Positions 3,001 through 62,393 of a stretch of DNA of 64,000 bases are shown here, one piece after another. The notes below the pieces were generated by a model, which did no database searches, had not been told where the DNA came from, and saw nothing but the letters and a program-made list of their open reading frames with translations. The stretch is from Amphiscolops sp. MND2022. Lineage: Eukaryota. Position numbers and translations under genes: made by a program. Each line of letters starts with the position of its first letter. The first letter of the stretch is position 1. The stretch lies in the NCBI GenBank assembly GCA_964187785.1, contig OZ076409.1:28150001-28214000 (forward strand), given 5' to 3'.

Positions 3001-4611
3001 CATCGACATCCAGGCATCTCTAAAATGCTGCAAGAGATCCGCCAAAAATACTACTACCCTGGCATAGCAAAATACGTTAAAAAATGGGTAGAAGGATGCG
3101 AAACGTGCGCTAGAGACAAAAGAGTCCCAAATAATACAATTACACCAGAATTGTTGAATTTGCCCGAATGGGACCTTGGTCCAGCAGATGCCATGCAGAT
3201 AGACTTATTACCAAACTTACCAACTAGTGGCGGATACCAGACGGTGATGACGGCTATAGATGTATTCTCAAGATACTTATTCGCCTACCCGCTAATTGAG
3301 GCAACAGCCACGAATGTAGCCAAGGTGATAATTGATATCATGACGAAACACTCATATTTACCAACAACTCTCATCACAGACAAAGGGTCCGCATTTACAT
3401 CGACCATCATAGCTGAGATAACTCAAATTTTGGGTATAACACTCAAATGCGCTACTACAAAGCACCCGCAAACAATTGGCAAACTCGAAAGGACCCATGC
3501 CTCACTCAAAACAAATTTGAAAATGGCCTCAGGGGAATATCGACGCCAATGGCATAAATATTTACCATTAGCAGTACTCAACTACAATACCACATACCAC
3601 TCTAGTATTGGATGTGAACCGAGTAAAGTCTTCCACGGCCGGATTCCCTATAACGTCCTAGACCACAAATTGGGAAATAACCCCAATAAAAATTTTCTGC
3701 CAACTACAGAATTTGCGGAGGAAGTACAGCAGAGGACACAAATCCTCATAGATCAAACAAAAAAGAACATAATGCAGTCTTATTTGAAATATAAAGACTA
3801 TTACGACCGAAAGGCAAAGGCTGCCCCACTTAAAGAAAAGGACTACTGTTTTGTTCTACAGCCTAAAGCGGACAGTCAGGCATCAAAAATTCCATTCAAG
3901 GAATACAGGTGGATTGGACCATTCGTCATTCAAAAAGTACTGTCCAACGACAATTATATTGTCCGTCGTCTAAATACAAATAAAACTCAAATACTTCATC
4001 GTATTAGACTAAAGAAATTCGTCCCGAATGCCCCTTTAGAGGACAAGTACGATGGAGAAAAATTACAACCCGACAATGAGATAGTAATCCCGCAAGACGA
4101 TTTGTACACTATCTCATGGGAAGTAGACTTTGAGTACGACTTATTTGAACCGAGGAAGGAAAATTGGACAGACGTGGCCACACGCCGGCCGACGGACGCC
4201 GAGTCCACTAATACGGACAATGACGTTACCGACGAGGAAAGCGCTAGCACTGAAAGCTGCAGCGAGCGCACGACAAGAAATTACGTCACCGAGAACGAAC
4301 GCGCCAGCAATGAAACTTACAATGAGCGCACGACAGAATATGACGTTACCGAGAACGAAATATCCCCGAGAGGGAACAATAGCAGTGACGAACCGTCCCC
4401 GCAGAATGAAACGCCAAATGAGACTGAGAATGAAAATGACGTCACTAATGATTTAAAAGATACGGAAAACGTTTCAAACACAGGCGCAGATATTACCGTG
4501 CCCGGAATATCAGAAACTGGAAATTCAAATGAAAATTCGAGCCCTAGAGGAGGGAAATACAATCTTCGACCTAACCCTACCCCCAACTTTACTGATGAAT
4601 ACAGATACTAG
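1..4611 (+). CDS. pol: Pol polyprotein (protease, dUTPase-like relic, RT, RNase H, integrase, acidic tail); one in-frame TAA at 184-186
   Basis: Protease LVDTGA near 110-125; RT LDCSQAYH and YVDD; RNase H TDSS...KEFLA...TDNK; integrase H-x-H...CETC, QIDLL, ITDKG, LERTH; ORF 190-4611 is open. Confidence 0.95.
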
Positions 4612-7800: not shown

Positions 7801-8827
7801 CAGAACTGAGGGCTCCACTTGTGTACCCTTCGGTACTAGCGTCACTATCCAGTCCAACTAATCCAGGACTGTCTGACTTCTTGCGGAAGCACTTGACTCG
7901 TTGCCGATTAGGACTCTGTTGAACATTCTGTGACCTGATTCCTACTCGGATGGCTGCTTCCAAGATGTTCTTCATCTGATGAAGGGACGAAGTAATGGTC
8001 TCAGAGGACACAGCGCGCAGAATGGAATGTACTTGGCCCTGATTAAAGGCCACTGTGGCATGCCCGACTGGAAGGATACTCGGATTCGTTTCGCTGAAAT
8101 GTTGATCGATGAGGGTCCGAGCAGAAGCAGACAAAGGCCTAGTAGGACTAAGAAGCTTCGGGGACGGAGCATCAGGCAACCCAGCTGTAGTCGACGGTCC
8201 AGCCTCCTTGGGGACTTCAGACTCCACAACGCTCAAACTCTCCATGTTAATCAGGAAAGGAGGTTCTTTAAGGGTCTCTGCGCCAGAACTGTCAAGCAAC
8301 TCTTCGTTGTCACTTGTGTCAGTTTGGAAATAATCTGCCTTAGCGACAGAAAAGCCAGTTTCACTTCGGATGTCAGCTGCAGGGTCGACATCGACTTCAC
8401 TCGACTCCTGATTGGAGGCTTCTCCCACTACCTGAGGAATGGGGTCCGACTCGGGGACTTTCTCAATAGCTGGATGGACAGCCTTATCTACAATAGCAGC
8501 GCTAGTAGGGGGTAAGAAGGAGATGTCAAGACCAAGGCCCTGGCAACCCAAAGTCTGCAATTGACGGTCAATGTAAGCGGAAATGCTTTCATCCGTAGAA
8601 GGGCTTGGGGTCGGAGCAGTCTTATCAGGATTATCTCCTGGCGGCACTAGTTGTATGGACTCAGGGTCTGCAGGGATCGATCGACCAGCTTCTTCGGGAA
8701 TGGCAACTTCTTCTTCAGTCATGGATGCAGTAGCGGTGACAGGAACAATATCATTTCGCTCTTCGGACGTCATGTCTAAACAGAAAGAGATAAACTCAAG
8801 CGGATAACTTCCTGAGAAAGAGTCCAT
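4848..8827 (-). CDS. Antisense 4-exon gene (8827-7010, 6926-6441, 6372-6156, 5998-4848), ~1223 aa; BED-like zinc finger and NLS; probably derived from a hAT-type transposase
   Basis: GT-AG introns of 83, 68 and 157 nt join four minus-strand ORFs into 3672 nt with no stops; the same intron positions occur in element 2; motifs SPPRKRRR and FYCQICK...RHFQCEAH. The start codon is less certain than the exons. Confidence 0.85.
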
Positions 8828-10054
8828 TACCGCATTAAAAATCTTCCGGAAGTAGATATTTCGAACTCAAGTGAACACTTGTGTTATGGGACAGGAAGTA
8901 CGTGAATGAAATGAGAGCCCTGATCAAGCCTCAGATTAATTCAATACTAAAATAGAAACAAAACCTGAAAAGCTACTGACCTGTTTGAATGCAAAGAAGG
9001 ATGTCTTGAGAAGGGAGTGCTGTGTACAGTTAGACTGGTGGTCACTGAATTGAAAGCTGAGCGATCAGTAGAGGAGGAGGACGAAGCTGGACTGTGGCGA
9101 ATACAGCAGCAGTTGTAAGGAGAAGACAAATTCTTCTTTGATGAGGGACAAGAAAGGTTGCTGGAGATGAATTAGCGAAAAGGGACTCAGTGTCGATTGT
9201 CCTAGGATGACCCAAGAAATCCACAAAAGACGTAATCGGAAGAAATTACAAATGACTACTTCAAATGAATACGGAGTAAATACGACTAGAAGACTAAAAG
9301 ACTAGAGATGATTAAATACTGGACGATAATACAAAGAGTAACTGGAAAGAATTTGAAAATAATGAATTGAAAAGAGAATTGGCAATGTGACAAGATGTCA
9401 AAGTTGGAGTTCGTGGCTATACAGTTTGGTGTCAAATTTACAAGATATTTACAATTTACACTATTATGTGGATAGAGTCTGCCAGCGATATCTACATTCT
9501 TTCATTTATCTTATTTCGAAACTTTACCATTTTATAAAATATTTCATGATTTTACCAGGATTTTATTTAATTTCAGGTCATTTTATATTATTCCTTATAT
9601 GGATTTACGACCTTGGGGAGCCATTTTTACTCAAGAGAAATTTTGCTGCATTCCTATTGGTTAATCAGAAACGCTGATGGACGGCGTGGCCGTCTGCCAT
9701 AGCTTCACCCTCTTGAAACTTTTAAGTGATTGTTGAGTGTTAATAAACACTTGAAGCGACGCTCTTAATATGGAAGTGTTGATAGAGTTGATGTAAGTCA
9801 ACAAAGCCTCGGTCGGCATTTTCAAATAAGACTGAGCGGCTAGTTAATAGACTCTAGAAAGAAGGAATTTTGTTATTGAAAATTTAGTCAGCAAGGAAGG
9901 GAGAAACCCCGGGAAACTGAAACGAAAACTCCCGCAAGTCGACAGAAGGGGAAACCGCCATTGTTTCAGTTTCACTTTTGAAAATCAGCAGCTTCTCAAA
10001 ACTCAAGACTTAAAACCTTTTAGTCAACTGTCCAAGATAGCTAAAAAACTGATC

Positions 10055-10896
10055 ATGGATAAATTCCTGGCAACTCACTTCGACTGTGATTCTCCTCAAT
10101 ATTACCCCGAGGACTTTCAGGGGGCAGCGCCCGGAGACGGAATAATATATATATATCATCGGACGACGACATGGAATGTGTCAGCAGCGCATCTGTTGAC
10201 GACCTAGAAAGCCTGTCTGACGACGATGAGATGGCCCTCCTGGCTCAATGCGTGGAGAGACAGATGGAGCTTCCATCGACATCAGAAGCAATTTCCATCC
10301 CTTCCTCTGCCAATAAACAGGAAGTGACACGCGCCGCGACTCCCAGACTAGCGTACGTCCCTGGGCCTATGTTCGACGCTGGCTATTTTGACTTGGGAAT
10401 TGGCAGAGGGCCAATTGCGAGAGACCCGCGACTAAGGAATGATCACCCGATCAATTTGTGTAGCCAGCTAATCCCTATGGTCGACGCGCCTATGTCTCCC
10501 CCAGCCGTCGACAAATATCCGTCAGGCGACTGGAGAATAGCAGCGGAAGCCGCTACTAGTAGCAAACAAGAACATGCCAACGGAATACACTTCAGGGGAC
10601 CAAGTGGCGCAGATAACCCCTACATCTCAGGATGTACGGACTGCCTCGTCTGCGGAAAATCAGTCGAACAGATTCAAGACGAGGCAGTCATCGACTACCT
10701 TCATAAAACAACCATCCAAGGAGAATCGGCCCTCCAATTCAACGCAAGAAGGCTAGCCTTCCTAGAAGGAATGAAGGTGGGATGTTTTATGCTCATTCCA
10801 GGGGGAGTGTCCCAGGCGTCCGCCTGTGATGGAAATCTTTATACAATCAGTCACGACTACAGGAAGGCGCAGCCCAACACCCTCCCACTGAATTAA
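10055..10896 (+). CDS. Sense accessory ORF (unknown function) overlapping PPT and 3' LTR; +2 frameshift in the (AT)n run near 10145-10156
   Basis: Homologous to element 2 ORF 31727-32579 (YPEDFQGAAPG, AQCVE, NxHPI, PMVDxPMSPP, DCxxCGKS, PGGVSQAxACDGN). Confidence 0.8.
10798..10807 (+). other. Polypurine tract of element 1
   Basis: CCAGGGGGAG immediately 5' of the LTR-start TGT; identical in element 2. Confidence 0.8.
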
Positions 10897-12380
10897 GTTT
10901 TACAAGCAAAACTATATTTGTTGCTTTAAAAAGTCATGTAAAACTCTATATATTTCATTTTGTACAAGTTATATTATGTAATTCTATGTATTAATACGAG
11001 TTAATTGGACACCAAGGCGTACAGGTAAAGGAAACGCGTTCAAATGTTTTCTTGCCTGTCGCCTTGGTCCGCAAGTCCGACTAACTCGTCATCCAATCAT
11101 AGCGCAGTGTTATGTAACCTTTACTCGTGCTAGCTTAATAGATTAAAGGACTAGACAGCTATATGCCGCCTGCTAATAAAGCGCCGGGCTGTACCAGTCT
11201 ATTGGACACTGAGTCCGCGCTTTAATTGAGAGTGCTATTCTATCTAGCAGTACTGGTTATGTAATAATTAATCTTTTGATAACTAATAAAAGGCGCTATT
11301 GGTCCTCAAAGGACTGATTTAATATTTTAGACTTAGTTTGATGGTGTTGCTTCATATGTAATTTGCGCAATATATTTAGTTTAGAATATATGTAAAATTA
11401 CTATCTATACATGTAGTAAGCATTTCATACATGTAATATGTATTTCATACATGTAGTACGTTGCTCAGTATGCATGTAAGCAGTTGCTTGTCCTAACGGA
11501 CTCATGGTCCCGCCGCCATATTTGCCGCCAAGAGGGACCTTTGATCTATATGATGTAATGTTGACGTTGCCTGCTATTTATAGATTGTAGCTATATTTAG
11601 AAAGCCCTTAAGGCTATTTTTAGAATATGATCACCATTTTATTGAGTGTCATGCAGATTCAAATATATATAACCGGGACTGGTGGTCCCGGGGACAGAAT
11701 TATTCTGACGATACTTTGATACGTTACTGTTGCATTACTGTTGCGAACTGTTTATTAAAACTACCCGTTCATTTTCACTTTGCAAGCCCGAGATATTAAT
11801 TTAAATTCTTGCCTCTTGCAATAATCTCTTATGCCTTCTACTAGACGTCAAAAGGCCAAAGCTAGGAGATCTAGAGAAATGGACATGCTGTCCGACTATG
11901 ATAACCTAGATGTGATGCTGGGAAATGAAAATAATAATCCCATTGAAAGAGAACTAGCCGAAGTGATAGATCAGTCGTCGGCCCACGGGGACGATGATAC
12001 AAACGTGTACCATGAAAATGAGTTCAGAGATTACTTACATGAAAATGAACCTTTGAGGCAAAACGAAGTCAGACAATCCTTTGAGGCCTTTTCAAGTGAG
12101 TTTAATCTTAGATTGTCTCAAGAAATGGAATCTATGATGTCAATAATGCATAGCCAAATAAATAGAGCTATAACAACAGCTATAGCTGAAAGAGTTATTC
12201 CAGAAATTCAGAATATTGCGAACTCGATGTCCTCTATGGGACACAGGGACACTGAGGCCAGTTCGTCCCCAAATAGTCAGGAGAACAGGGAAAGCGCACC
12301 CGGGCCTAAAATAAAAATTGCAAAGAAAGATTCAAGATCTGTAGGTGACTTAAGAGATACCATGGGTCATGGTTCTTACA
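10808..12380 (+). repeat. 3' LTR of element 1 (1573 bp)
   Basis: TGT...ACA termini; start homologous to TGTCGCAGGC of the other LTRs; TATA-like box near 11663; contains gag-N ORF. Confidence 0.88.
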
Positions 12381-16400: not shown

Positions 16401-19400
16401 ATTACGGCCAAAACTCAGCGGACGTGAATTCTCAGGCTGAGATTAACAAGTTGTCGAGTGAGTTAAACTCTAGAATATCTAGAGAAATGAATGAGATGAT
16501 GAGTAGCGTTAGTTCTCAAATCCAAAGGGCCATAAATGAGGCTATAGGTACTCAAGTCTCAAATTCAAAATGTCATGATGGCCGGATTGGGACGTGAGAC
16601 TAGGAGAGGATGGGAAACTTCTGTTGAGAGACCGGAAATTAACTCCCAAATTCAGTTTAATTTCAACGTGAAAAATAATCTTAGAAATGAACAAAGTGAT
16701 GACCACCGCAATAGCGAATTCACTAACCGAAATGTTCATGACAGCCGGACTTGGCCCTTAGCGGTTTCAGGAGTTTCTCTAAAAAGTGGTCTGATCAGTG
16801 TGAGGTCTGTGGTCTGAAGAGAAAAAAGGTCACTGTAAGAGTCGGGCATTTTTCCTTGAAAGGAAAAGGCGCCGACTGAAAAGAAAATAGCAAAACTGAA
16901 CAGTGTGGAATTTTTCTTCGTGTACAATCAATGTTGTTCAAAGTACCGATTCCTTCAATTACCTCTCCCGCGTTGTTGTGGTAACCAATTTATTCATAAC
17001 TTATTTATTTTATTTTCCGCCTTCATAAAGTTATTTGTGTAGAGGAAGGAAAATCACCATCAGTGTTGTGGTTTATTGCCAAAAATCCACATAGTGGAAA
17101 AATCCATTAACTTCTTCAGTTACTTAAGTGAAATAGATAAATTTGTCACGGTGACCCAGTCCATAGGGCGCTCGCCTGCCAATCAGTAGGTTGTGGGTTC
17201 GAACCCGGGCTGGAACCTCATTTTTTTCTGCTTTCCCAGGCAGCACCTCGTCTTTGCCATACTTTTTTGCTTATTTCAGAAAGCTTCGTTTTCGCTCGGG
17301 TTTGCAAGCCTCGTTTTCGCTAAACCTTTTTGCAATATGATTGTTGCAGAAAATTACCCTGTGGTAAGCGGGCATCTTGTTACAGTTCCGTGTGTGCTAG
17401 TACAGAAACAAATTCGTGATTTCATTCACTTCAACTGTTTCAAACTAGTTAGTTTTTCTTTGATCGTCTCGATTTACTAGTTTCCTTCCTGTTCCCACTG
17501 CAGCTAAATCGCAGATTTTGGAGGATGCAGCAGCAGGATTATGCACAAGGCAAAATGCCCATAGGATGCCATAATGGACCTATATAACGGTGATCAATCT
17601 GCGCGAAGAGCGTTTCAAGGGCTTTCTAACGATAATACCAAGTTGTCTTTCAAAATATACCGTTTATGTCAGGAGAAGGTTTATTCGAGACATGTCGTCA
17701 AAAAGAAACGACACAGTTCGTTATGCAGCTCGAGATCTTTCAAGTACACCGGAATTACAATTGAACCCTGGAGTTATTCCGCGAGTTCGGAGAAAAAGAT
17801 GGTTGGAAGCAACATAATGGAAGAGAGGAGTTATTCTGAGCAAGAAAAACAAATAACAAAGTATGAAAATTGCACAAAGGTATGCTAACTGGACACCGGA
17901 AGACTTCAACCGGGTGATTTGGTCGGCTGGAACAAAAGTGAACAGATTTAGTTCAGAGATGCCCTCGCCTCAATATTGGACCACCATGTGCAACGTACAT
18001 TCAAACACAGAAGTTTTAGATTAATGCAATGGAACTGTATGGCATAATGAATCAACCAGGCGTGTAAAAGGAAAAACATGGATAATTGGATTCATTGTGA
18101 GACTTTATCAGATAGTTTAATGGGAACATTGAAACACTACGGATAGGGAACTAATTACATACACTTCAACCGGCTAATGACTCTAAACATACACTTGGGT
18201 TAGCAGAGGACTTGTTCGTGCAAAATAAAATAACAGTTACTGTCGCAGGCTGCCGCCTGCGATGGCAACATCTACACAATTGACCATACGAGGCCAACCG
18301 CCCTACCTGGGACACTCCCATTGTAAACTAAAACTTTCAAACATTTAGTATTTTTTTGAATATGTAATGTTGATTGATGAATTGTTTTATTATTTAAAAT
18401 ACATTTGACAGCAAGCTACACTGACAGGCGGAAAGGAAACGTGTTCAAATGTTTGCCTGTCCAGTATAGCTAGCTAAGCCGTCCATGGTCAATTGGCCAA
18501 TCAGAGTGCAGTTTATAACAGCCATCTTATTACTCATTACGTAACTGCGCTAGTAGCTATTTAGAATGGACCAATACGGCCAATTAGCTTTGCCGGCCTT
18601 AATGTAATTTGATGCTATACTTGAATGATATTCAGTAACTACAAATAGGACGAAAGCGGCTATGTGACATAGCCGTCCCTATTCACTGTATTAATTGTCT
18701 TGGTGCTATACAGTAAATAAGGCCTACCACGGCCGGTTGACACGATGAACACTCAAGTGCTGTATACTGACCACAAGAGATTGGTGTCACAATTGATTAG
18801 TGATGAAAAGACACAAGTAGCCCTCCCCCATGCAATAACAAAACGCATATATTGTTGACATGTAGTGTTGCTTTTCGTATTATACTGGGATCAAATTAGA
18901 AAGCCCCAACGTTTACAGGCCATATAGGGCTTACATGTATGTGCTCAAGTGTAATATTGTTTTGTGAAACTGAAAGGGAACTGAAAGTCCCTTACAGTTA
19001 CTTACCATATGTATTTTACATGAATTATGTTTACATGTAAAAGTGTTGATATATATTACGTTACACATGAGTGTTATTACCTACTCGTCATATGGCCTAA
19101 ACGGGCGTTTTGATCTAACCGCTCACGTAGGCCTACGATGATGTCATGTTGCTATTTATAGTGCTGACGTATCTATTTTTAGTTTGCGTTGCTGTTTTTA
19201 GTATCATGACCATAACAATTTTGCCTGTCATGCCCTCTGGGGTATATATACCCAAGTCGGCCTGACAAAGGTTAATCATAATTTTGCAGTTACCTGATAC
19301 ATCACGCTCATTTTTGATTAACCTGAATATAGAAATACTTGTCCACAGGAACAATGCAAATATTTTCTCCTGGAATAACGTTTTCAATGCCTTCTACGAG

Positions 19401-22400
19401 GAGACAAAAAGCCAAGTCTAGGAAATCCAGTGAATTAGATATGTTGTCCGATTACGGCAACATGGACGTGATGCTAGGTGAGAGAAATTCCCACTCTATA
19501 GAAAGAGAACTTGATAGCTTGATTAACGTCCCTGAGGGACAACGAGACTTTCAGTCCTTTCCGAATAGAGAAAATTGATCTCAAGAAAATGAGATTAGAG
19601 ACATCGATAGTAGAAATGAACTTGTTAGGGAAAGTAGACTGATAGAGTCTATCAATACACTATCTGGGGAAATGAATGCTAGGATGTCACGCGAGATGGA
19701 GGCTATGATGGACCTAATGCAATCACAGATTACCAGGGCCATTAGTTCTGCTATAAGCGAGAGAATTCTTCCGGAAATACAGAATATGGTAGAAAATTTG
19801 CCTTCGGGCCAACATGACGTTGAGCCGGGTACGTCCTTAAATGAGGAAGGAATCAGGAATGCATGGAAGAATACAAATACAAGATTAACAAAGAAGGATT
19901 CAAGGTCCGCTTGTGATCTGAGAGACCACACGGACGTTAGCCCTTACATGGTGACAGGAGCTACCGAACTCCAACAGCCGATTCCTGAATTCCTCACAGG
20001 ACGAATTCACTCTCAGCCAGACCTCCAAAGGCAAGAATCTGCACATGACGCAACTCTGGATACAACTCTGCCAGTAGCGGAGCCCGTTCCGGCAGAACAG
20101 CCATTGGACCCTATCAACCGAATAGCTGATGTCCTGGTAAACCTCCAAAACAAACCACAGTCGATGACAATCAGACCAGTCACGACGAACCCCATGACAT
20201 TCGACGGCAAAACAGAGAAATTTGAATTGTTTGAAGATTTATTTCATACAATGGTAAAGATGCAGCCCGCTATGACGGAACAAATGAAAATAAATCATTT
20301 TCATTCATTGCTCCGAAAAGGAGCCCTGCAGCCTTTCCGAAATATAAAATCCATAAACCGTCAAACATTAGAGGACGTATTGGTCATATTCCGCAGAAAG
20401 TACGTCAAACCTGAGTCCCAGGCCACAGCTAAACACAAATGGCATAGGCTCATCTTCGATCCCAACACAATGAAACTACCCGATTTTCTTGAGGAACTCA
20501 ACCAGGGTGTCGAGAAAGCCTTTGGGGAAAACGCCAAGAGCATGATCGATAGCCTCTTATACGCCAAATTACCCCCGAAACTCAAGAGATCAGTGAAAAT
20601 GGCCCGACTGGAAAACGGGACCTACGAGGAGATTGTGGCACATCTGGAACGAGAACTCGAGTTAAACGCATTAGAAGAATCTGATGACCTACCCATTGCT
20701 ACAATGGCTTCGTCGTCCAACAAATCCCGAAATTTACTATCCAATGGCATTGACACCAACAAAAATAACCAATGCTCATACTGCAAGGCAGAGGACCACT
20801 TCTGGAAAAATTGTCCAAAACTGAAAAAGAAGAAAGAATCAGAGGCCAAAGACGGCAAGAGGCCTCAACGACAAACTTATCCAGAATGCCCCACCTGCAG
20901 CAAAACCAATCATCCAGCAGAGAAATGTTGGCGTGGCGCTGGTGCCCATCTTCGTCCAAACGAAATAGACAAGACTCCTCCAAAGATACGGAGCCCTCTG
21001 AAGACGAAGGCACTCGCACCAAGAACGAAAAATCCACAACGTCCTCATCAGGCCAATCGAATTCCAAAAAGCCTGAATCAAAAAACTAATTTTGCCACGA
21101 CTCCAACTCTCTGATCAAATGTCGATACGACAATATGTCGTATCAGACCCAGCTAATATCGCCTACAAGCAATCACAAAAGGACACACAGGGACCCCATC
21201 GACTGTCTGGCAGCAGCAGATGGCGGAAGCCTGTACTCAAACCCAATACATTATTCACAGTGACCACCCATATCTATATCGACGTAATAACCTCACTAAA
21301 GACTCAGAAACCCAATTCCGACCCTTACAAATTGTCGAAGACTACAACCCCAATACTATGACCCTGAGTACGGCAAAGACCCGTACTGGGATGATGATAT
21401 ATACGATAGGCACAATTTACAATTTCGGAATGATGACTACCCGCCAACAGATGATGAGGATGACCCTGACATTGTGGACACCATACTGTCCCGGGCACTC
21501 ATCGAACCGTGGCAACCAAATTTTGATGCAATCAAAGATCAGCCGCATGCAGAAGAGACACAGGCCACACCTGGCCTCCTCGACGAGACAGCCTTCATAC
21601 ATGTCCTTGTAACTAAAGAGGGAGAACCAGCATACATACCCTTATCCACAAACCTCGGACTCAAATACAAAAAACGGATGCTATATTTCCCGATGGACTT
21701 TGGGGAACTAACCATAGACGGCCTCATAGACACTGGAGCGCACTCCAGCGCAATACCGGAAGCAGACCTCAGGAAAATACGCCTACTGGCGCCCCAATCC
21801 ATAGTCAAAGAGGGACCTGCCCCGACGTTTCAAATTATGGTCGCAAACGGACAATTGGAAACCCCAAAGAGCACTGTTGAACTCAGGTTCGAAGTCGGAG
21901 ATATTGAATTCCACGAAATATTTATAGTAATGGAAAAACTGACTGGCCCTATCATAGGACTAATGTTCCTCCAGAGGAATCATACAGTACTGGACATGCG
22001 ACAAGGCATTCTCAATTTCCCATATTTCTCGATGCAACTCAAAACGGCTGACCATAAATACTCCAACGTACTGGAACCAATACTTAACCCAGACGCTATC
22101 ACAATACCACCCAATGACCGTACTTTGGTAGAGATCAAATCCCAAATATACAATGAAAACACGGTCACAGGAGTGTTGCAACCCAGTGATCTCCTCCATG
22201 AAGAAGGCGACATCAGATTCTGTGCCGCAATAGTCGCATTGACTAGTGGAAACGTCAACGTTCATATCACCAATTTCACAGACCAACCGTACAAGCTTAA
22301 AAAGGGGCTACACATAGCAAACTTTTCCGTACTAACACCGGAATAGATGAAACACGTCAAACCAATTGACCCTGGTGTCCACCCTGGTGACCCTGGCATC

Positions 22401-25400
22401 TCCTCAATGAAAACGAAGAGGATGCGATCTACTATGTCAGTAGTCTACTCAAGGCTAACCGGAACAATGACCAATATGAGCAGTACTGTTTCCCAACGCC
22501 AGAAAACCCAGGGAACGAAGATTCCCATACTCCCATCCAACGACGAATTCTTCAAGAATTACGAAACCTCCAAGAAGCTGAACAATTGAATCCTCAGAAT
22601 GATGATGAGTCACTCCGCAAATTCCTTGGCAATTTCGACTGGAAAGACTCCATGCTGCAACAACATGAAATCAAAAAGATCGAATCGCTTCTAGTCGAAT
22701 ACCATGACATATTCGCACGACACAGATTTGACATCGGAGTGAATGAAGAATTCACGGTCAAACTGACCCCTAAGGACGATTCGCCCGCTTACAACCGAAG
22801 TCTTCCAACTCCAGTCAATTCAGAAGAGGACATACTTGTCGAACTGGCCCTCTTACACAAATATGGCATAATAACTACCCTGCCCTTTTCGAAATACCCC
22901 AGTCCCATATTCGCACAGAAAAAGCCGAATGGGAAGCTAAGACTACTAGTCGACCTGAGAAAAATTAATAACCTCATTTCGGATGACTACATAAACAACA
23001 ATCATCCGGTTAGCACTCTAACAGACGCTGCACAACATATGGCAGGAAAGAAACTGTTCTGTAAACTTGACTGTTCACAGGCATACCACTGCCTACCAAT
23101 GGCGGACCAAGGGTCCGTTGAGATGCTTGCGTTCAATTTTGCAAGCCGCACATTTGCGTATAGACGACTTGCTCAGGGCCTTAGCAGAGCATTATCAGCC
23201 TTTTCAAGTTTCATGAGGGAATACCTGGATAAAGTTATCAAAGCTGATCAATGTGCCCAATATGTGGACGACATCGGCATAGCCGCCAACGACGCGGATC
23301 ATCTCATCAAAAATTTGAAAGCCACCTTTGAGTGTATCAGACATGCGGGCCTTAAACTAACAAGGCACAAATGTCACTTTGGGGCAACGGAAATCGATTT
23401 TTTGGGAAGAACAATTACCCCGGAAGGTGTCAAACCACAAAAGGAGCGAATAACAAACTTCCTAGGAAAAACCAAATTCCCCAAGTCTAAAAAAGCTCTG
23501 CAAAGATATCTTGGTTTCCTCAATTATTACAAGAACTATATCCCAAGACTATCTGAAAAATTAGCCCCTTTCTTCCAACTTCTCAAAAAAGACGAAAAAG
23601 TCCTAGTGACTACAGAACTAATACAACAGTTCAATGAAATCAACCGGGTTGTCAACAAATGTAGCCAATTGGATCTGAAGCAACCTTTGCCAAACAAGCA
23701 ACTGGTCCTGATGACAGACGCTAGTTTCACAGCGGCCGGCTACGCCATACTTACCGAGGACGACCCAAACCAGAAATATTCATCTGTCAAAAAATCATAC
23801 GCTCCAATTGCATATGGCTCAAAAACTTTTACGCCATCGCAACTCAAAATGTCCATATACGCCAAGGAATTCTTAGCGATTTATTACGCATTCAAAGAAT
23901 TTGAACATATTTTCTGGGGAGCCCCTAAACCGATTACTATCCTCACGGACAACAAATCGGTCACGAGATTCTTCCAGACGAAGATAATCCCTCCAACACT
24001 CTGGAATGCATGTGACTATGTAATACAATTCAACTTTGTCATAGCACATATACCAGGAAAAACAACACAGCAGCCGACTACTTATCTCGCATGGAAATGG
24101 ACCCCAGAGAGAAACTAATCCTTAAAATCCGCGAAGACATAGAGACTAAGCCCATCGAGGTCAATGTCCAATCGGCAGGCGTTGCTGAAGAGGAACAGGT
24201 TTTCTTCACGGTGCAAGATGATGAGACAGAAGCTCAAATTTGGGAACGTAAAAAACAAAGCCGAACTAACCCAATCGACCAAGAAGGCGTAATTCAAATT
24301 GACGCAATATCTGAAAATTTAGTAGTTGAAATTACGAACTTTACCCAAAAATTACGCAGAACGAATCAAATCTTACTTGAACAATCCAAGGACCCTATAC
24401 TGCGCCAACTCAAAGCCAAAATTCAGACGAAGACTACTCTAAAGAGCTACTCCAGCAAGATATCCGATACAAACACTACCTCAACAACTTGGACCGAATA
24501 GTCCTTAAAGACGAAATAGTCACACGACAATATTATGATGAAACTGGACAAGTCAAGTATCACCAGGTTCTCTTACCAAAACACCTTTTGACAGAATTCT
24601 TACAGGCCTTATCCGGAACGGCGCACAAACACCCTGGCATATCGAAAATGTTACAAGAAATCCGACAGAAATACTACTACCCCGGTATAGCAAAACATGT
24701 AAAAAAATGGGTAGAAGGATGTGTAACTTGCGCAAAAGATAAACGGGTTCCAAACAACACGATAACACGTGAATTGCTTAACTTGCCAGAATGGGACCTT
24801 GGACCAGAGGGCGCAATGCAAATCGATTTACTCCCAAACTTACCAACAAGCGGGGGTTACCAAACAGTGATGACAGCAACAGATGTCTTTTCAAGATATC
24901 TGTTTGCCTACCCGCTAGTTGAGGCAACAGCCTCTAACACGGCAAAGGTCTTAATAGACATCATGACAAAGCACTCATATTTGCCAACTACGATCATCAC
25001 CGACAAAATTTTACATGCTTTTACATCAAAAATTATTGCAGAGATAACGCGAATCTTGGGAATAACCCTAAAATGTGCGACGACTAAACATCCACAAACA
25101 ATTGGCAAACTCGAGAGAACTCACGCCTCATTGAAGACAAACTTGAAAATGGCCTCAGGGGAAAATCGCCGTCAATGGCACAAATATTTGCCACTAGCAG
25201 TGCTCAATTATAACACAACTTATCATTCCAGCATCGGTTGTGAACCGAGCAAGGTCTTTCACGGAAGAGTTCCCTATAATGTTCTTGATCATAAACTTGG
25301 AAACAATCCTAATAAGGATTTCCTCCCGACGACAGAATTTGCTGAAGAATTACAACAGAGAACGAAAGTTCTCATTGACAAAACGAAGCATAACATTATG

Positions 25401-28400
25401 CAGTCCTACTTGAAATACAAGGAGTACTATGACCGAAAAGCCAAGGCAGCTCCTCTCAGCGAACAAGATTTTTGTTTTATCCTACAGCCTAAAGCGGATA
25501 ATCAAGGATCAAAAATACCATTTAGAGAATATCGCTGGATCGGTCCTTATCGAATTGAAAAGGTATTACCTAACGACAATTACATTGTCCGCCGGTTAAA
25601 TACGAATAAAACACAGATATTACACCGAATCCGCCTGAAAAAATTTGTTCCAAACACGTCTTTAGAGGACAAATATGCCAAAGAGAAATTGCAACCAGAT
25701 GATGAAATAATCATACCGCAAGATGATTTATACACCATCTCATGGGAAGCAGATTTTGACTACCATGTCTTCGAGCCGAGACGAGACGATAATACGGACG
25801 AAGAATCGCAAACACCAGACAGCGATGCTGGTGTCACGACTAGTGATTACGTCATTTATGACAACGCTGATGACAACGCGGTAAGGCCGGGGACGGCCAC
25901 CAGCCGAGACGGCACAATCACACGAGACGCAAATGACGTCACGGAATTGAATGAACGAACCAAAAAGAATGAAAATGAAGCGGGACCGAGTACGGCCGCT
26001 AGCTGAGACGCACCTATAGTGCATGACGAACATGACGTTAACGAGAATGCTGCGCGAGATGAACAAAGCAGCGAAACAGGAATGCCGAGAACGGCCACTA
26101 GCCGAAATAGCCACAATGGTGGCAACACACCACCTAGTTCAGGAAAGAACGCGAATGACGTCACAAATGAATTAGAAGGCGAGAAAAACTCTCTTGATGA
26201 GGGGGATGATATTACCGTGCCCGGAATATCGAATGAAAAAACAAATGAAAAAACTGATGAAAACTCTAGCCCTAGAGGGGGGAAATACAACCTTCGACCT
26301 AATCCCAACCCCAACTATACTGATGAATACAGATACTAGTCAGAAATGTTAAATTGTGTCCCTCTTTATTTTATTGCCCGAGATGGCATGTTTTTTCACT
26401 GGGACCTTTCTTACTTTAAAACAGACTAACTGCATAAATATACAAACAGAAAACTACTACGAAACAAATATACAAATTGAAAGTGTAAAATAACAAATGT
26501 TCTCTATGTACATTTAGTCTTTAGATGAGCCTTGACGCAGCTCCTTCACCGTCTTGGAAATCTCGCTAGGAGGGATGTCGCCGAAATAAGCCAATTCCTG
26601 GGCTTTACCAGCACAGCAGAGCTGGAAACAGAGGATGAACGAGACGTAGTGGCAACCACAGCAGTTGGAACTCCTTTCAGATTTTTGTAAGCCGTAGTTA
26701 ACGTTTTGAGGAAATGGGCTCGACCAAGAACGTCCACATGAGACCAGGGATCTCCGGCAAACTGGCATGAAATAAACTGGTCAGACAATTCTTTGTATGC
26801 AGCCAAAGCGGACTCAGTAGTGCAAACGGCTATCGCATCAGGGCAGTTGGCCAGATAAGACTGTGTAGGTAGAATCACAGCGGAAAGACGACAATTCGAA
26901 CTAGATGTATCTTCATCCTGGAATTTGACAGCTGGAAGGTCATGATGGTCCTCAGTGATGCAGAGACAACAGAGCCTTTATAGACGAGTAAGCACTGCGT
27001 AGGTAGTCCACAAACTCGAAATATTCATCTCGGCACTCGCTCTTAGAAGCTTCGTCTACCCAGCCTCGAACTCGCAAACTATCGTACAGGGAATCGAAAC
27101 AGAAAGTAACCTGGCTGAGCGGCAGAGAGAGCAATACGTGAGGGTCGAAACAACCCATCCCGTGCACAATGTTGGCGGTGAAATGCACGTTGCGCAACAG
27201 AGCCTCCAGTAAGGACACAATGTAACCTCGGGTCTCAATTCCAAAATTCTCCCTCTCTTTGGCAATGAGGGCATCAAGACTTTGTTGGCCTGGCTTTTTA
27301 TCATCTTGATGTCGTTTTATTTTGGCTCGACAAGCTTGGTCCAAGTCGGTCTCCAATTTCAACCGGCTCAGGAAATCACGGCTGGATAACTGTTTCAAGT
27401 CATCGGGGCACAATTGAAGGAGCTTAGTCCATTCGGCATCATCAGGAGTACAAGAATCGCCCTGTGACACAAGCGACGAATAAAGCGGCAGTTAGGAAGA
27501 AGCACATTTGGGTGCATGAGTTCTGGTAGGGAGATGGCTTCAAATCGGAATGGATATTGAATCCCATTCTTGAAAAGACCGCTGGTCTCAAGGGCGCGAA
27601 AGACCATTTCCGTAGACAAACAAAGTTGCATCTCGTCGTCCTGCCAGGCTGCGTTCAAAACACTTTGTATCTAAATAAAATACAGACTCAAAACGTGAAA
27701 ATGAAGCTCCATAGCAAAAGCGTGCTAAATATGACCTAGTGGCCGAGCGCGGCAATTGGAAAAAGATGGAAATTAGAACTAGACAAACATAGGAAAGGAA
27801 CTAACAATCTCGGACCAAACAGGAGAGGAACTCAAGCTTGACGGTGAAGAAGTCGTCTTGGATTATCACCCATTCTAGACTCTGTGGCTGAAAAGGGAGA
27901 TTACGCTTTCAAAGGAGTAAGATGCATGTTATACTGGCTTAAGACAACACTGGGAAATTGGGACCATCTTACACCGAAGCGGAATGAAAGGTTAAAGATA
28001 TACAAACCTTGTTCTTGACACCTTGCAAGACTTGTGTTGGGGCCGTCTTCGTCATGAAGTCAAGGACGTTCTTCCAGTGTTTGATGAGTTCAGTACACAG
28101 AGCTGGGATTTTCTTCAACTGAATGTCGCATGCAGCCGAAGCCTACAAAGTGGGGACGAAATAACATGGAAAGATCTGAGTTACGTTTACCACAAAAGGA
28201 AAACTCAACTACAAAACTGCTGACGAGGAAATAAAAACCAAAACGGTGGATCAAAAATAGATGAAAACCTTGCAAAGCTCCGGACACTGTAGGGCCCATG
28301 GCTGGCTCTGGCACCCGCGCAGAAAGACAACCAGATACTTGAGTTGTGTGAACATGTCGATTCGGCCGAAGACATGCTTAGTTTGAAGCACATTTGGGTG

Positions 28401-31400
28401 CATGAGTTCTGGTAGGGAGATGGCTTCAAATCGGAATGGATATTGAATCCCATTCTTGAAAAGACCGCTGGTCTCAAGGGCGCGAAAGACCATAGAGGAA
28501 CAGCCAGAAACACTGACCAAGCTGGGTTTGGAGGAAGTGGAAGACAATACGTGCGAGATGGCAGACAAATAACAATCTGGATAAGCCTCCCCTTGGTGGT
28601 GGCGATAAAGTTCAACTCTTGCCAGTGTGTCATTCTTCCAAAACCGGATCGATAGGCAACGGTAAACGCCCTGGGTGGTAAACTCAAGCGAATACAAACC
28701 ACTGGAGAAAACATGTCCTGAGATGTCGGAAAGTCCGCGCATGAAGATGTGGTGGAAGATGTTCTGAAAAAGAGAATATGGGCTCAATCGTAGTAATTTC
28801 ACAACGAATCACCATCAGGATTCTAGGAAAAGAAATACTTACGGTAAGTGTAGCGGACCCCCCGTCGAAAGAAGAAAACAGGGCCTGATGGTTGGTGAAT
28901 TGTCCGACTCTAGTCCAGAGACTTTGGAGTAGTGAGAAATTTCCGTCCTTGGGAATGAAGGTGCCAATCAGGGAAATTAGAGTGCTAGTCCTTAAGTCAT
29001 CAGGGTTAGTGATACCCCCAATGCTGGCCATATAATCTTCAAAAAACGGAAACCGATCTCCTGCTTCGATCAGAGGGACATCCATGAATAACGGTTTCTC
29101 TTTCTCTAATTCGACGGGAGTAAGCACCCAGTCGTCTTTGCCTCTGACTTGGTGAGTCACATTGCCGGTGATTTCGTCGGTTTCCTGCAAGTGTACATAC
29201 CTCCACTTCTGGTCCTTCCTCAAATGGCCCTCTGTCCTGTAGTGTCGCAAAATCTCCCTAGCGCCCTTGGAATATATTGACACGTTCGTTTTGCACAGCA
29301 TACAATAAAATTTGAATTTGTTGTGTACGGGATCGAGAGGCCCAGACACGAAAGTCCGAGTCCACTGGATGCCTTTAAAGTAAGCGTCTTTCATGACTTT
29401 TCCTGGCTTACTAAGCAGTTTCCTTCTTTTCCGCGGAGGACTGGGAGTAGCTACATCGGATCCTCGTGGCCGTCTAAGGACGGATAATGGCTGGTGGTCA
29501 GTGCTGCTGTATCCACTTCCGATAGTGGGAGTCGTGACCTCAGCGCGAGACGTGCTGGGAGTGAACCTAAAAGGCGTTTCAGGAAGTTTTGTTCTTGATC
29601 CAGTCTCACTTACCCCATCTATCCCAGATATGGACCCCACTTGATACGGGTCCTCGTCAAAATTGAACGCCCCGCTCGTATAGCCGTCACTGGTATTTCT
29701 TCCGAAACTGCCTTCATCACCTGAACTGCTAGAAGGCCGACGAGCTGGTGTAGGGCAACGCCGAGGCATACTTCTCTTCTTGTCTTGTGAAGTCCCACTA
29801 GTGGCATGTAGCAAGAGAGATTTCATCATGTGATAAGAAGATATCACAGACTCATCGGCAACAGTGCGAAGGATGGCGTGGACCTGATCCTCATTAAAGG
29901 CAATGGTCGTATGACCGGCTGGCAATTGGACGGGGGTGGCCTCTGCGAAATACTTCATAATGACCGATCTTCCTTTGACTGATAGTTGCCTATCGGAATT
30001 GGCAACCCTAGCGCGATATTGCTCCTGCTCTGTGTCGCTGTGGCCAGACTCGGCCCGGAATTCTCCCTCGAACTCGGAGAAAGCAGAAGGATCCCACGCC
30101 ATGGAGGACGTAATGGGAGGAAATGCATCTAGGCCAGAACTATCTAAAAGTTCTTCAGCATCGCTAGTGTCTCCATAAAGGGGAGCAGCTCCAGATTGCG
30201 AAGTCGACTCGGGCTCATTGGCAGGTCCAGTTTTCTCCTCGCTCACGTCCTGACTAACGACGATTGGGTCAGAGACAGAAACTTTCAAAAGTTCAGGGAA
30301 GATTGTCGACGTAACTGTGGCAGGCATAGGTATCGGTATGTCACTGATCTCAGATTCACGTGTTGGGAATTCCATACATGTGGCGATTCTTTCAATAAAG
30401 GCAGAGACGCTCTCCTCTGTAGACGGACTAGAAAAGGACGTTTGGGACAAAGGCCGGACAGGGTCAACTTGTGCTGCGTTACCTTGCTGCTCTACTTCAG
30501 TAGATCCGTTTCCATCACCACCGGGAACAGTGGATTTTGGCATTTCCTTCTCAGAAGACATATCTAAACAGAAGGATATAAAGTTTTGCGGATAACTTCC
30601 TGAATATGAGTCCATGAACAACTGCAATTAAAACCTTCCGGAAGTGAAAAGAAAATATTCCAAATGCTAAACTTGTTTAGTGAAAATGGACAGGAAGTCA
30701 ATGAACGAGAGGAAAAGCCCTGATCAAGCTTATTTCCGTTCAAAAATTGAAAAGACCAAATAGCTTACCTGCGGATGATGGACGTATAAGGACTGAAGGC
30801 AGTTGCTCACAAATGCAAGAGTATGTGTTGCACCAGTATGCTCGGAATAGCAATGAAGGACCGATGAGGCCAGATGAATTGCAGGAGTGAAAACGTGGAA
30901 GATGAATTGGAGAAGATTCCAAGAAGGAAAGTGACGGTAGTGGCGTCGGGACAGAAGCGTAAATAGCGACGGAAAGAAAATAAACTGTTCGCTGATGAAC
31001 TGATTTAAAATGATGAAGACTAAAAGACTGACTAAAGACCAAGTAAACAATGGATAAATACGAATATGGAAATGTAACAATTAATGAATTGGAAGAAGAT
31101 GAAAGTGATTGCAAGAGCAAAGTTGGAGTTCGTGGCAAACTGGATTTGATGTCAAATATTTTTACAATTATGAGAAATATTTTGTGGATGGAATCGGCCA
31201 GAGAAATCCACATTAGTTATATTTCGAAACATGCAATTTCATTATTTTATTATCCTGGTTATTTCAATAATTTATTATTTCCTTATTTGGATTATTATTT
31301 TAATTCCGCTATTTTGAAATGAAGGCGGTAAAGACGATTGCTATTGGCTGTCGCGGCGATGCGCCGCGCGTGGCCTTAAAACTTCATCACCCTCTCTTGA

Positions 31401-34400
31401 AATTCTCAAGTGGATATCAAGTGGAGATAAACACTCAGCGGTGTCATTGATGGCTCTTCGCCGCGTCGGGCAAACGACTGAAGTGATGATGTAAACAAGG
31501 CGGCTTGTTGGAACCATCAAAGGATGTTTAGGAGAATTTATTAGTGAAACGATCACCGGGAGAGATGAGACCCCGGGAAAAAATCATGAGACTTGAAAAT
31601 CTTTCAGACGAAGTCAGCAAGGAAAAGTTATCATTCTCTCTTCTGAAGCTTTCAATAACAGTTGGTTAGCGGAACTTGAAAATTCCAAAACTCATTCCAA
31701 TTCTTATAAAAATTGCTAAGAATTTCATGAATGCAAGATTCATGGCCGCCCTATACCCTGAAGACTTCCAAGGCGCAGCGCCCGGCGGTGTAGACATAAT
31801 CTGCCTATCCAGTGACGAAGAGGAGGAAATGGGCGACCAGAGCTTGAATTCAGTGCTAGACCTTCAATTGTCATCAGAACGATGAAGAGATGGATGACGA
31901 AATCATGATAATGGCCCAATGTGTCGAGGCGCAACTATCATCTCCTATCCCAATACCTGGTTCTTCAATAGCTCTGCGAATTAGAGATGAAGCCCCCCAA
32001 CATAACTTGCCAAGATATGGGACCTCTGGGACGAGCTTTGCAGTGAGGCCTACTCTCGACCAATCCTTCTTCTCACTAGGGAAGGGAAATGGCCCGATAC
32101 GGCGAGATGACCGCGTGCGCAACAATCACCCTATCAAGTTGTGTAGGGAAATCATTCCAATGGTAGATACACCTATGTCGCCCCCACCTGAAGAGAGAGG
32201 ACCAATTTACGATTCCTATTCGGTGGACGGTCAGAGCAAACTCTCCCGACAGTCCTTGGACACGGTTGCAAACCATTTCCAAGGAATGGAAATTGAGACG
32301 AACAGCCCAATGGGGAATTACTCAGACTGTGTGATATGTGGAAAATCTACCTTACAAATTCAGAGCGAAGCAGTCACGGATTATTTGCGCAAGACGGCCA
32401 TTTTGGGAGAATCGGCAGATCAGCTAGAGGCACGCAAAAGAGCTTTTATGGAAGGAATGCAGGTGGGCACTTTCCTATTACTACCAGGGGGAGTGTCGCA
32501 GGCTGCCGCCTGCGATGGCAACATCTACACAATTGACCATACGAGGCCAACCGCCCTACCTGGGACACTCCCATTGTAAACTAAAACTTTCAAACATTTA
32601 GTATTATTTTGAATATGTAATGTTGATTGATGAATTGTTTTATTATTTAAAATACATTTGACAGCAAGCTACACTGACAGGCAGAAAGGAAACGTGTTCA
32701 AATGTTTGCCTGTCCAGTATAGCTAGCTAAGCCGTCCATGGTCAATTGGCCAATCAGAGTGCAGTTTATAACAGCCACCTTATTACTCATTACGTAACTG
32801 CGCTAGTAGCTATTTAGAATGGACCAATACGGCCAATTAGCTTTGCCGGCCTTAATGTAATTTGATGCTATACTTGAATGATATTCAGTAACTACAAATA
32901 GGACGAAAGCGGCTATGTGACATAGCCGTCCCTATTCACTGTATTAATTGTCTTGGTGCTATACAGTAAATAAGGCCTACCACGGCCGGTTGACACGATG
33001 AACACTCAAGTGCTGTATACTGACCACATGAGATTGGTGTCACAATTGATTAGTGATGAAAAGACACAAGTAGCCCTCCCCCATGCAATAACAAAACGCA
33101 TATATTGTTGACATGTAGTGTTGCTTTTCGTATTATACTGGGATCAAATTAGAAAGCCCCAACGTTTACAGGCCGTATAGGGCTTACATGTATGTGCTCA
33201 AGTGTAATATTGTTTTGTGAAACTGAAAGGGAACTGGAAGTCCCTTACAGTTACTTACCATATGTATTTTACATGAATTATGTTTACATGTAAAAGTGTT
33301 GATATATATTACGTTACACACGAGTGTTATTACCTACTCGTCATATGGCCTAAACGGGCGCTTTGATCTAACCGCTCAAGTATGCCTACGATGATGTCAT
33401 GCTGCTATTTATAGTGCTGACGTATCTATTTTTAGTTTGCGTTGCTATTTTTAGTATCATGACCATAACAATTTTGCCTGTCATGCCCTCTGGTGTATAT
33501 ATACCCAAGTCGGCCTGACAAAGGTTAATCATAATTTTGCAGTTACCTGATACATCACGCTCATTTTTGATTAACCTGAAAATAGAAATACTTGTCCACA
33601 GGAACAATTCAAATATTTTCTCCTGGAATAACATTTTCAATGCCTTCTACGAGGAGACAAAAAGCCAAGTCTAGGAAATCCAGAGAATTAGATATGTTGT
33701 CCGATTACGGCAACATGGACGTGATGCTAGGTGAGAGAAATTCCAACTCTATAGAAAGAGAACTTGATAGCTTGATTAACGTCCCTGAGGGACAACGGGA
33801 CTTTCAGTCCTTTCCGAATAGAGAAAATTCATCTCAAGAAAATGAGATTAGAGACATCGATAGTAGAAATGAACCTGTTAGGGAAAGTAGACTGATAGAA
33901 TCTATCAATACACTATCTGGGGAAATGAATGCTAGGATGTCACGCGAGATGGAGTCTATGATGGACCTAATGCAATCACAGATTACCAGGGCCATTAGTT
34001 CTGCTATAAGCGAGAGAATTATTCCGGAAATACAGAATATGGTAGAAAATTTGCCTTTGGGCCAACATGACGTTGAGCCGGGTACGTCCTTAAATGAGGA
34101 AGGAATCAGGAATGCATGGAAGAATACAAATACAAGATTAACAAAGAAGGATTCAAGGTCCGCTTGTGATCTGAGAGACCACACGGACGTTAGCCCTTAC
34201 AGTTACCAACCGGCTTTCACAATCACCGGAAATGATCCAACATAAAACGACGCCCGCTAAGCACCGGGATATTTTCCGCTAAAAAAACGCATCAACGCAT
34301 CAGCCCGGGTTCGACCCGCGATCTCGTGTGGAGATGTGCTAATGAAAATGGGAAATTGGTCAAGTAACTAAATAGTCAAATAACTATATAAAATAGTCAA

Positions 34401-42177: not shown

Positions 42178-43070
42178 GTAACATGAAATTGCAGTTATCT
42201 CTTCACAAGAGTGTACTGGATAATTGGTTTCTTCGTCGCTGAATATTTCGTTTAATTTATTTCACGGAATTTCAAAAAAAGTTTACGAAAGTTGCATTAA
42301 AACCTCAACAGTCAGAAAACTTTGGAGTTTTGAGCATATTTGGGGTAATATTGTGTCACTTCTCCATAACAAACTTCAGGTATCTCTTCAGGATAGCGTA
42401 ATTGGTAACTACTTTTTCTGTCGTTGAACTCCAACCCAGGAACTCTATCTGTTACAGTTTTTCAACACTTGGATTGAAAAGGACGACCTTTTGAAAACAG
42501 TGAGTTTTTCGAAGTTTTGACGTCAACCTGTTGTCCGTTTTTCCCACAGGCGGCTAATTTCGCATCACTGAAACAAATTGCGCAGCTAATTTTTCCGTAG
42601 CTGAGCTTTTTGAACAGTTTTTCCTAAACTTTTCAAACAAGTCACAAAATTCGAAAAGAAATGTCAAAAAATTGTAAGGTGCTATTTGAGGCAATGTTGC
42701 TGCAAGAAACTGCAAATATCTCTTCCACAATACATAATGGATATCAATTAAGGTTGTTGTTGAATGTTGTCACTATTTTAACCACCGAAATGTCTCGGAA
42801 AAATGTCAAAATTTAGAAAAAATGGGGTGTTCGACTGTTTTGGCACCTTTTTAGGTACTTCGCCTGCAAAAAACTGCAAATTATCCTTTCAAAAACGTAC
42901 TGCATAGCTAGTTATTTTCTTTGGAGCTTTCGGAAACTTCTTACCCACGAAGTTTATCTTATCGCGCATAAAATGTCCTCGAAAAACAAAAATTGGAAAA
43001 AATTGTTTTTTTTCTATGCTACTTTGTGGTTGTTTTGAGGCACTTTTGTAAAAACGAATTGCATATATCT
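42178..43070. repeat. Diverged interspersed repeat; second copy at ~45683-46410 resuming at 47396
   Basis: Collinear similarity, e.g. GTAACAxGAAAxTxCAGTTATC...ACTGGATAA and CATAGCTAGTTATTT. Confidence 0.6.
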
Positions 43071-62361: not shown

Positions 62362-62393
62362 TTACAGAACAAAATTTTAACTAAATTTTTACC

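Follow-up and report, generated by a model that had tools for sequence, protein, structure and literature searches.

In HIV and SIV, the accessory reading frame nef lies across the polypurine tract (PPT) and ends in U3. Extra open reading frames (ORFs) are already known from LTR elements (PMC5408684, PMC13547354). The Ty3/gypsy element Cer1 of C. elegans encodes CERV, described in the available part of its report as a 517-aa protein of H, M and G domains that is encoded in the 5′ half by spliced exons shared with gag; CERV multimerises and has four clustered cysteines and an invariant Ser-Pro needed for export of genomic RNA (gRNA) (PMC10309623). Also known are anti-silencing proteins of plant DNA transposons and the counter-defence of herpesviruses based on SUMO-interacting motifs (SIMs): the SIM of ICP0, IVISDS, common to Daxx and IE2, counters intrinsic silencing (PMC3174244). 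As far as the consulted part of one further source goes, Piwi silencing itself works via SUMO and SIM-bearing effectors, the Drosophila protein Su(var)2-10 assembling a scaffold of SUMO that is read by SIM-bearing silencing effectors (PMC8490990).

Here we analyse an ORF, ORF-X, that occurs in two related elements of a 64-kb stretch of DNA (the window). ORF-X proves to be a genuine accessory gene under selection, placed at the 3′ end of Ty3/gypsy LTR retrotransposons.

Results

Host elements and their layout

Nested Ty3/gypsy LTR elements populate the window (Table 1), identified as such by the PR-RT-RH-IN order of pol and by TG...CA LTRs, a target-site duplication (TSD), a primer-binding site (PBS) and a PPT. 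Element 2 is complete (18241-34201), with an LTR pair 98.5% identical, a 5-bp TSD (GTTAC) and a PBS (TGG) at 19949. Its gag/pol domain order is taken from the unbroken pol of element 1 (76% DNA identity between the two over pol), in which Pfam places dUTPase, RVT_1, RNase H and integrase in that order within 187-4608, with a DTG protease motif upstream. Downstream of pol, both elements carry first a spliced antisense gene, then a divergent gap about 1.1 kb long, and finally ORF-X in sense orientation.

Table 1 Coordinates of the features described in the window
Feature	Position	Strand	Remarks
pol, element 1	187..4611	+	related family
Spliced antisense gene, element 1	4848..8827	-	donors 7009 and 6440
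ORF-X with upstream KIAKK, element 1	10034..10896	+	ATG 10055; break near 10143-10156
3′ LTR, element 1	10808..12380	+	~1573 bp
5′ LTR, element 2	18241..19948	+	1708 bp; TSD GTTAC on both flanks
gag and pol, element 2	19579..26006	+	PR, dUTPase-like, RT, RNase H, IN; interrupted by several frame changes
Spliced antisense gene, element 2	26660..30615	-	GTAAGT donor 28842
Divergent intergenic region	30616..31708		ATTGG 31343, TYAAGTG 31406, pyrimidine tract ending CAG 31661
In-frame K-I-A-K-[KN]-x-x-x-x-[RK]-[FY] before AUG	31709..31741; 10034-10066	+	putative basic N-terminus
ORF-X, element 2	31727..32579	+	frame-broken near 31878-31882
SIM-like motif 1	31796..31828	+	IICL-SS-DEEEE, CK2-type serines
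SIM-like motif 2	31853..31895	+	VLDLQLSS and acidic run across break; clade-restricted
HPIxxC...DTPxSPP block	32127..32186	+	conserved Cys, near-invariant Ser-Pro
Folded core	32319..32468	+	CxxCG knuckle and two helices ending RAFxxGMxxG; modelled dimer interface
Polypurine tract, element 2	32486..32493	+	Pro-Gly-Gly-Val in ORF-X frame
3′ LTR, element 2	32494..34201	+	1708 bp; short hairpin at start also encodes SQAAACD

The 5′ LTR of element 2 opens with the last 28 ORF-X codons and closes with the first ~190 codons of gag. The start of gag thus lies well inside the LTR and reads through the PBS (19390-19948, 33640-34201 and 11830-12380), with the consequence that each 1.6-1.7-kb LTR holds both the end of ORF-X and the beginning of gag. 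A dUTPase-like domain sits between protease and RT (element 1 pol residues 97-179, Pfam E 3e-5), as it does in rotifer LTR elements.

The antisense protein of element 2 combines an acidic N-terminus, an NLS-like stretch (PPRKRRK), a C2H2-like finger and a hAT-transposase-like remainder; the finger reads CxxC...H and its Pfam C2H2 match is weak. Spliceosomal GTAAGT donors, which mark the DNA as eukaryotic, occupy matching places in both elements (7009 and 28842), and the two antisense proteins are 38-50% identical over their main aligned blocks. In the Atlas, the element 1 protein reached 0.83-0.84 to Dimer_Tnp_hAT and GTF2IRD2-like clusters, a lead that lies below firm evidence. The antisense product is possibly a captured, non-cutting DNA-binding protein. 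By eye, the Asp expected in its catalytic-site-like segments seems to be missing. The element 2 gene also holds an exact 109-bp duplication (27499-27607 and 28385-28493).

Other repeats lie around these elements. Solo-LTR-like remnants represent three further subfamilies, at 14994-16650 (+), 39300-40905 (-) and 43350-45229 (-), and the tail of ORF-X (SQAAA...PGTLPI) is retained in the two minus-strand remnants and absent at 14994. An unrelated, C/A-skewed Ty3/gypsy element with gag, RT, RNase H and IN occupies 52672-63530 (+); beyond these genes lie an ORF rich in Ser, Pro and Thr (60892-62361) and another that contains Cys and starts hydrophobic (62385-63530), with no Pfam match, a candidate envelope gene. 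Two repeat copies, 42112-42882 and 45617-46405, are 69% identical and contain internal units of ~190 bp.

ORF-X is intact in natural homologues and under selection

In element 2, ORF-X begins at ATG 31727, and a second ATG (31742) corresponds to the start of natural homologues. Its N-terminus reads VDIICLSSDEEEE...VLDLQLSS up to the frame break, past which the frame 31860-32579 continues via DCVICGKS and SQAAACDG to a TAA at 32577-32579, 86 nt into U3. The break in element 1 sits inside a TA microsatellite, and its stop codon (10894-10896) lies 89 nt into U3, the LTR starting at 10808. The preliminary description had proposed one frameshift per copy and a repaired read-through; this read-through is real, because unbroken natural homologues exist for both elements, P0129 being 84% identical to the part of the element 2 ORF-X after the break and P0001 94% identical to ORF-X of element 1. 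The coordinates of both elements likewise agree with the proposal that the ORF crosses the PPT and ends 86-89 nt into U3. The same terminal peptide recurs in database homologues, and the DNA of the metagenome locus L001 has the same PPT and LTR start.

Unbroken homologues of ORF-X are common, measure 277-279 aa and fall in clusters of 70, 128, 138 and 39 members; full-length proteins make up 11/15, 13/15, 13/15 and 7/15 of the members listed in four large clusters. A single-sequence search returned 60 matches among 1545 candidates, a profile search 163 among 2525, and an exhaustive one 421 representatives at E<=0.001, the best 150 of which were viewed. The homologue set comprised 323 proteins, of which 200 had the C-terminal domain, 112 were full length and 32 remained below 70% identity; these counts refer to proteins and clusters, not host species, and the database homologues carry no genomic context. 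The 42 pattern matches in viral contigs included no relative, DNA pattern scans of genome and viral contig collections gave no matches, and a phage tblastn gave none either. Whole divergent ORF-X proteins (P0144, P0149, P0152-P0155, P0157 and P0164) lie on contigs of only 1.1-2.3 kb, which would suit assembled subgenomic transcripts.

Codon tests were performed on three DNA copies (element 1, element 2 and L001), among which synonymous change has reached saturation (overall pS 0.73-0.86). In two conserved blocks before the PPT, pS was 0.74-0.90 versus a pN of 0.22-0.32, in 3/3 pairs. The SQAAACDG block, which overlaps the PPT and the LTR-end hairpin, had a lower pS (0.43-0.74), and therefore this block is partly held at the DNA level. 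The reading frame is maintained over ~270 codons in lineages less than 50% identical.

The N-terminus carries a conserved SIM-like motif

A hydrophobic core followed by Ser and an acidic run is the phospho-SIM consensus. In the parallel form, the core psi-psi-X-psi precedes acidic or CK2-phosphorylated residues, and position 4, then position 2, are the most selective, according to the part of the source consulted (PMC12751080). Judged by its residues, motif 1 of ORF-X fits this published pattern. Its strict form (aliphatic core, Ser, acidic run), a regex composed after the motif had been seen, occurred in 23/32 non-redundant homologues versus 0.18 expected from shuffles and in 95/112 full-length homologues; the motif is conserved across lineages 28-50% identical. 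When homologues were anchored on the serines only, 31/32 could be placed, and core positions 2 and 4 were both V/I/L in 24/31; position 3 was Tyr in 19/31 and position 1 variable. The Ser-Ser-Asp after the core (kept in 29, 29 and 28 of 32) is better conserved than the core itself. A loose ELM-style SIM regex matched 17/32 homologues versus 16.5 expected from shuffles, a result explained partly by its rejection of Tyr or Cys at core position 3.

The serines and acidic residues that follow the core are of CK2 type and lie in a region modelled as disordered (residues 1-54, pLDDT <50). The first 70 residues contain 18-19 acidic and 1-2 basic residues, and a helix is predicted after the acidic run. 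We consider SUMO binding by motif 1 rather probable. In a 5-member clade (support 99/98) the Ile at position 2 is lost and S-Y-x-S-[SL]-D retained, so that a partner could read phospho-Ser and Tyr rather than the SIM core. A reading of SDSDIEVI as a new SIM that makes up for motif 1 in the clade that lost it was weakened, as this segment aligns with the acidic start of the helix, which all lineages have.

Motif 2 was found in 8/32 homologues, all inside a 13-row clade that contains both families of the window, and the tandem arrangement is therefore not general. Of the tandem SIM-like motifs that had been described at the outset, motif 1 is conserved and motif 2 is confined to one clade. The N-terminal motifs read as originally described, except that in element 1 the core IIYI is present only across the frame break.

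Conserved cysteines and a predicted dimer

The C-terminal part of ORF-X follows the order CxxCG, two helices, AFxxGxxxG and SQAAACDG. Cysteines of HPIxxC, CxxC and ACDG are conserved in 30, 32, 30 and 32 of the 32 non-redundant homologues, one His in 26/32 and the Ser-Pro of [DE][TS]PxSP in 31/32. The preliminary description was right in reporting a CxxC and a further conserved Cys, but the conserved cysteines number four rather than three. The four probably bind zinc.

A model of the fragment 32049-32576 (112 sequences) placed residues 91-140, the knuckle and two helices, at pLDDT 86-97 per 10-residue block; the model of the whole protein was of low quality (mean pLDDT 49.5). Two copies modelled with zinc scored 0.38 versus 0.13 for the best control, on a scale calibrated without zinc in which the dimer mark was reached by 21/30 solved pairs and 0/23 single chains from microbes, and by 17/29 solved pairs and 0/30 single chains from eukaryotes (7/16 in animals; 1/7 without a solved relative). 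Across the dimer runs at least 42% of contacts agreed, with a modest pLDDT of at least 52. The modelled interface maps to A132, F133, G136 and G140, which are 82-94% conserved, and the models thus support an ORF-X homodimer formed via the AFxxGxxxG helix.

Similarity searches gave ORF-X no Pfam family, PDB-sequence or fold match (for Pfam, among the matches listed, the best 25 of 38 weak families). Foldseek returned 0 PDB and 0 BFVD matches at E<=0.001. In the VIA fold search the best Z was 5.3 over 45 residues, corresponding to generic helical hairpins, from which neither a new nor a known fold follows, and the ESM Atlas held no usable match for the C-terminal domain. A phosphatase match among PDB sequences (E 0.51) and weak treble-clef Pfam rows were dismissed as chance.

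Candidate signals for ORF-X expression

The divergent region upstream of ORF-X carries ATTGG and TYAAGTG, the latter presumably an NK-2-type site, in 3/3 DNA copies (9656/9722 in element 1, 31343/31406 in element 2 and 8/93 in L001), ~300-420 nt upstream of ORF-X; TYAAGTG alone is frequent, with 26 occurrences in the window. In all three copies the CAG of a pyrimidine tract lies 48-60 nt upstream of the Ile codon of KIAK, and no AUG occurs between this tract and the ORF-X coding start. ATTGG, TYAAGTG and the pyrimidine tract are candidates for an internal promoter and a splice acceptor.

K-I-A-K-[KN] precedes the AUG in frame in 3/3 DNA copies (at 425-463 in L001) with third-position changes only, and [RK]-[FY] follows after similar spacing. 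The KIAK stretch is also in frame in 11 database homologues with an earlier gene-call start, a sample partly interdependent and skewed towards open frames; in one homologue it is off-frame. All three DNA copies show A at -3 and G at +4 around its Ile codon (AUU or AUA), and the simplest reading would be initiation at this near-cognate codon, which would add a basic N-terminus. No AG stands in a common phase directly ahead of KIAKK, and a shared in-frame splice acceptor there was therefore rejected.

Discussion

A working model of ORF-X function

We propose that ORF-X acts in the nucleus as a dimer, binds chromatin factors that carry SUMO and promotes expression of its element, and we put the probability of this full chain up to counter-silencing, which the preliminary description had suggested, at roughly 0.4. 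ORF-X would be made from its own subgenomic mRNA, which would arise either at an internal promoter or by splicing to an acceptor ~50-60 nt ahead of the coding start. The C-terminal CxxC-helix-helix domain, zinc-bound by four cysteines, would homodimerise, and the dimer would present two SIMs (four in the window clade), parallel and CK2-phosphorylated, on disordered acidic arms able to bind SUMOylated chromatin factors multivalently. Since SIM-bearing effectors read the Su(var)2-10 SUMO scaffold, the two to four SIMs of a dimer could enable it to compete with such silencing effectors or displace them at the element, allowing more transcription, and the antisense zinc-finger protein might be its DNA-binding partner. 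The SIM of ICP0 is close in sequence to motif 1. Counted against the proposal, SIMs are loose motifs, and a SIM could equally recruit silencing or localise the protein.

An extended form of the proposal is more doubtful. It holds that an animal LTR retrotransposon lineage carries a dedicated counter-silencing cassette of two genes that share a divergent internal promoter, in which a captured, spliced, hAT-transposase-derived zinc-finger protein would locate the element and a novel zinc-bound dimer with multivalent phospho-SIMs and a non-AUG start would jam SUMO-dependent (piRNA/SETDB1-type) heterochromatin formation.

Other explanations draw on the same features. The acidity of the first 70 residues and the predicted helix after the acidic run would also suit an acidic transactivator or co-activator in a Tax- or Tas-like role, paired with the antisense zinc-finger protein, whose gene lies head-to-head with ORF-X and encodes an NLS-like stretch and a finger. 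The amphipathic helix would then be the activation surface and motif 1 would bind a non-SUMO phospho-acidic reader (e.g. SPOC or a PH domain), which is compatible with the better preservation of Ser-Ser-Asp than of the core. However, core positions 2 and 4 follow the SIM rules, and to our knowledge activation domains seldom hold one fixed residue order over such distances, which makes the constant I-x-I-S-S-D unusual for one; despite the likeness of the L-S-D-like second motif to SPOC ligands in the consulted part of one study (PMC9834408), we find a transactivator somewhat unlikely. The SPOC domain of RBM15 recognises acidic motifs with phospho-Ser as well as EB2, an export factor of EBV (same source and part), and ORF-X could instead be a Rev- or CERV-like post-transcriptional factor, a Cys4 oligomer with a proline-directed phospho-switch that brings about nuclear exit of unspliced genomic RNA, its acidic motif recruiting an export or splicing adaptor. 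The Cys4 and Ser-Pro anatomy fits a CERV-like RNA-export factor equally well: four conserved cysteines, Ser-Pro in 31/32, a modelled dimer and a candidate splice acceptor are all there. Yet the size of CERV (517 aa), its gag-shared exons and its G-like domain have no counterpart in ORF-X, whose last 88 residues hold 7 K/R and which has no Arg-rich tract for RNA binding, and on balance this role appears unlikely.

The SIM might also be real and serve another end, either self-limitation through SUMO-dependent repression and copy-number control or the steering of the integration complex to SUMO-rich chromatin. SIM-bearing proteins of the Piwi pathway are silencing effectors, at least in the consulted part of that report (PMC8490990), and the window itself is a cluster of LTR elements. 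The lineage, however, is abundant and diverse, which fits a benefit to spread, and no link of ORF-X to integrase or Gag was seen; both ends seem improbable to us. The most sceptical explanation would ascribe the conservation to DNA signals (PPT, LTR-end hairpin, promoter) instead of to a protein. It can point to the SQAAACDG codons, which overlap PPT and hairpin and have a pS of 0.43-0.74, but it runs against the saturated synonymous sites, the low pN before the PPT and the frame kept over ~270 codons in lineages <50% identical, and we regard it as largely refuted.

Comparison with known systems

ORF-X is an unannotated accessory protein family with a putative SIM that is credible on its residue pattern. 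We found no description of the family in the literature searched, a coverage that excludes Repbase, and no account of an LTR retrotransposon that encodes an accessory protein with a SIM, in a search thin for subscription journals. In its accessible part the acoel genome paper (PMC9911081) does not describe the elements of the window; repeat libraries in supplementary files of the literature might list the family; the consulted parts of PMC4276917 and PMC13269885 contain nothing specific to ORF-X.

The likeness to Nef noted in the preliminary description holds for position, across the PPT and into U3, and not for kinship. ORF-X resembles Nef further in having a disordered N-terminal arm with an acidic cluster ahead of a folded core. 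In contrast to Nef, 0/112 full-length homologues start Met-Gly (no myristoylation Gly2), ORF-X has no sequence match among PDB sequences or the Pfam matches listed, and its host is a Ty3/gypsy element without env. The fold searches gave no significant match to anything, which speaks neither for nor against a Nef-like core. ORF-X as Env was rejected: the N-terminus is acidic, the best 19-residue hydropathy is 1.0-1.5 in 4/4 homologues, and there is no signal peptide or TM anchor.

Like CERV, as far as its report was consulted (PMC10309623), ORF-X is a putative Ty3/gypsy regulatory protein with four conserved Cys, a near-invariant Ser-Pro and predicted multimerisation; unlike CERV it has ~270-280 aa, is mostly disordered and lies 3′, the two being set apart by description, not by direct sequence comparison. 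SUMO occurs 0 times in the available text of that paper. With ICP0 and VZV ORF61 (PMC3174244, PMC3161977, both in part) ORF-X shares a phospho-SIM-like motif of the IVISDS type beside acidic and Ser residues and a Cys-rich domain, but where these have a RING E3 domain its Cys are those of one CxxC knuckle plus two more at a distance. The Pfam matches listed include no RING, and the four Cys lie in three separate blocks, so that the mechanism of a SUMO-targeted ubiquitin ligase (STUbL) of the RNF4 or ICP0 type does not apply.

VANC of plant VANDAL DNA transposons is likewise an accessory protein with a predicted helix-based oligomer and a comparable proposed role; it differs in belonging to plant DNA transposons, in its MAIN-derived fold and in sequence-specific DNA binding, and the consulted part of its report notes no SIM (PMC13547354). 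The dUTPase-bearing LTR elements of bdelloid rotifers are also invertebrate, with PR-dUTPase-RT-RH-IN and a non-env third ORF, but among the ORF3 types in the available part of the report (env, DEDDy, GDSL, coiled-coil and TM) none matches ORF-X, and no antisense gene is seen there (PMC5408684). Should SUMO binding and de-repression prove true, ORF-X would be the means by which a transposon directly counters the SUMO step in the silencing of animal transposons, and it would offer a small reagent for probing that step. Even if not, it is a selected, unannotated regulatory gene family, and with it a Ty3/gypsy lineage gains a layout like that of complex retroviruses.
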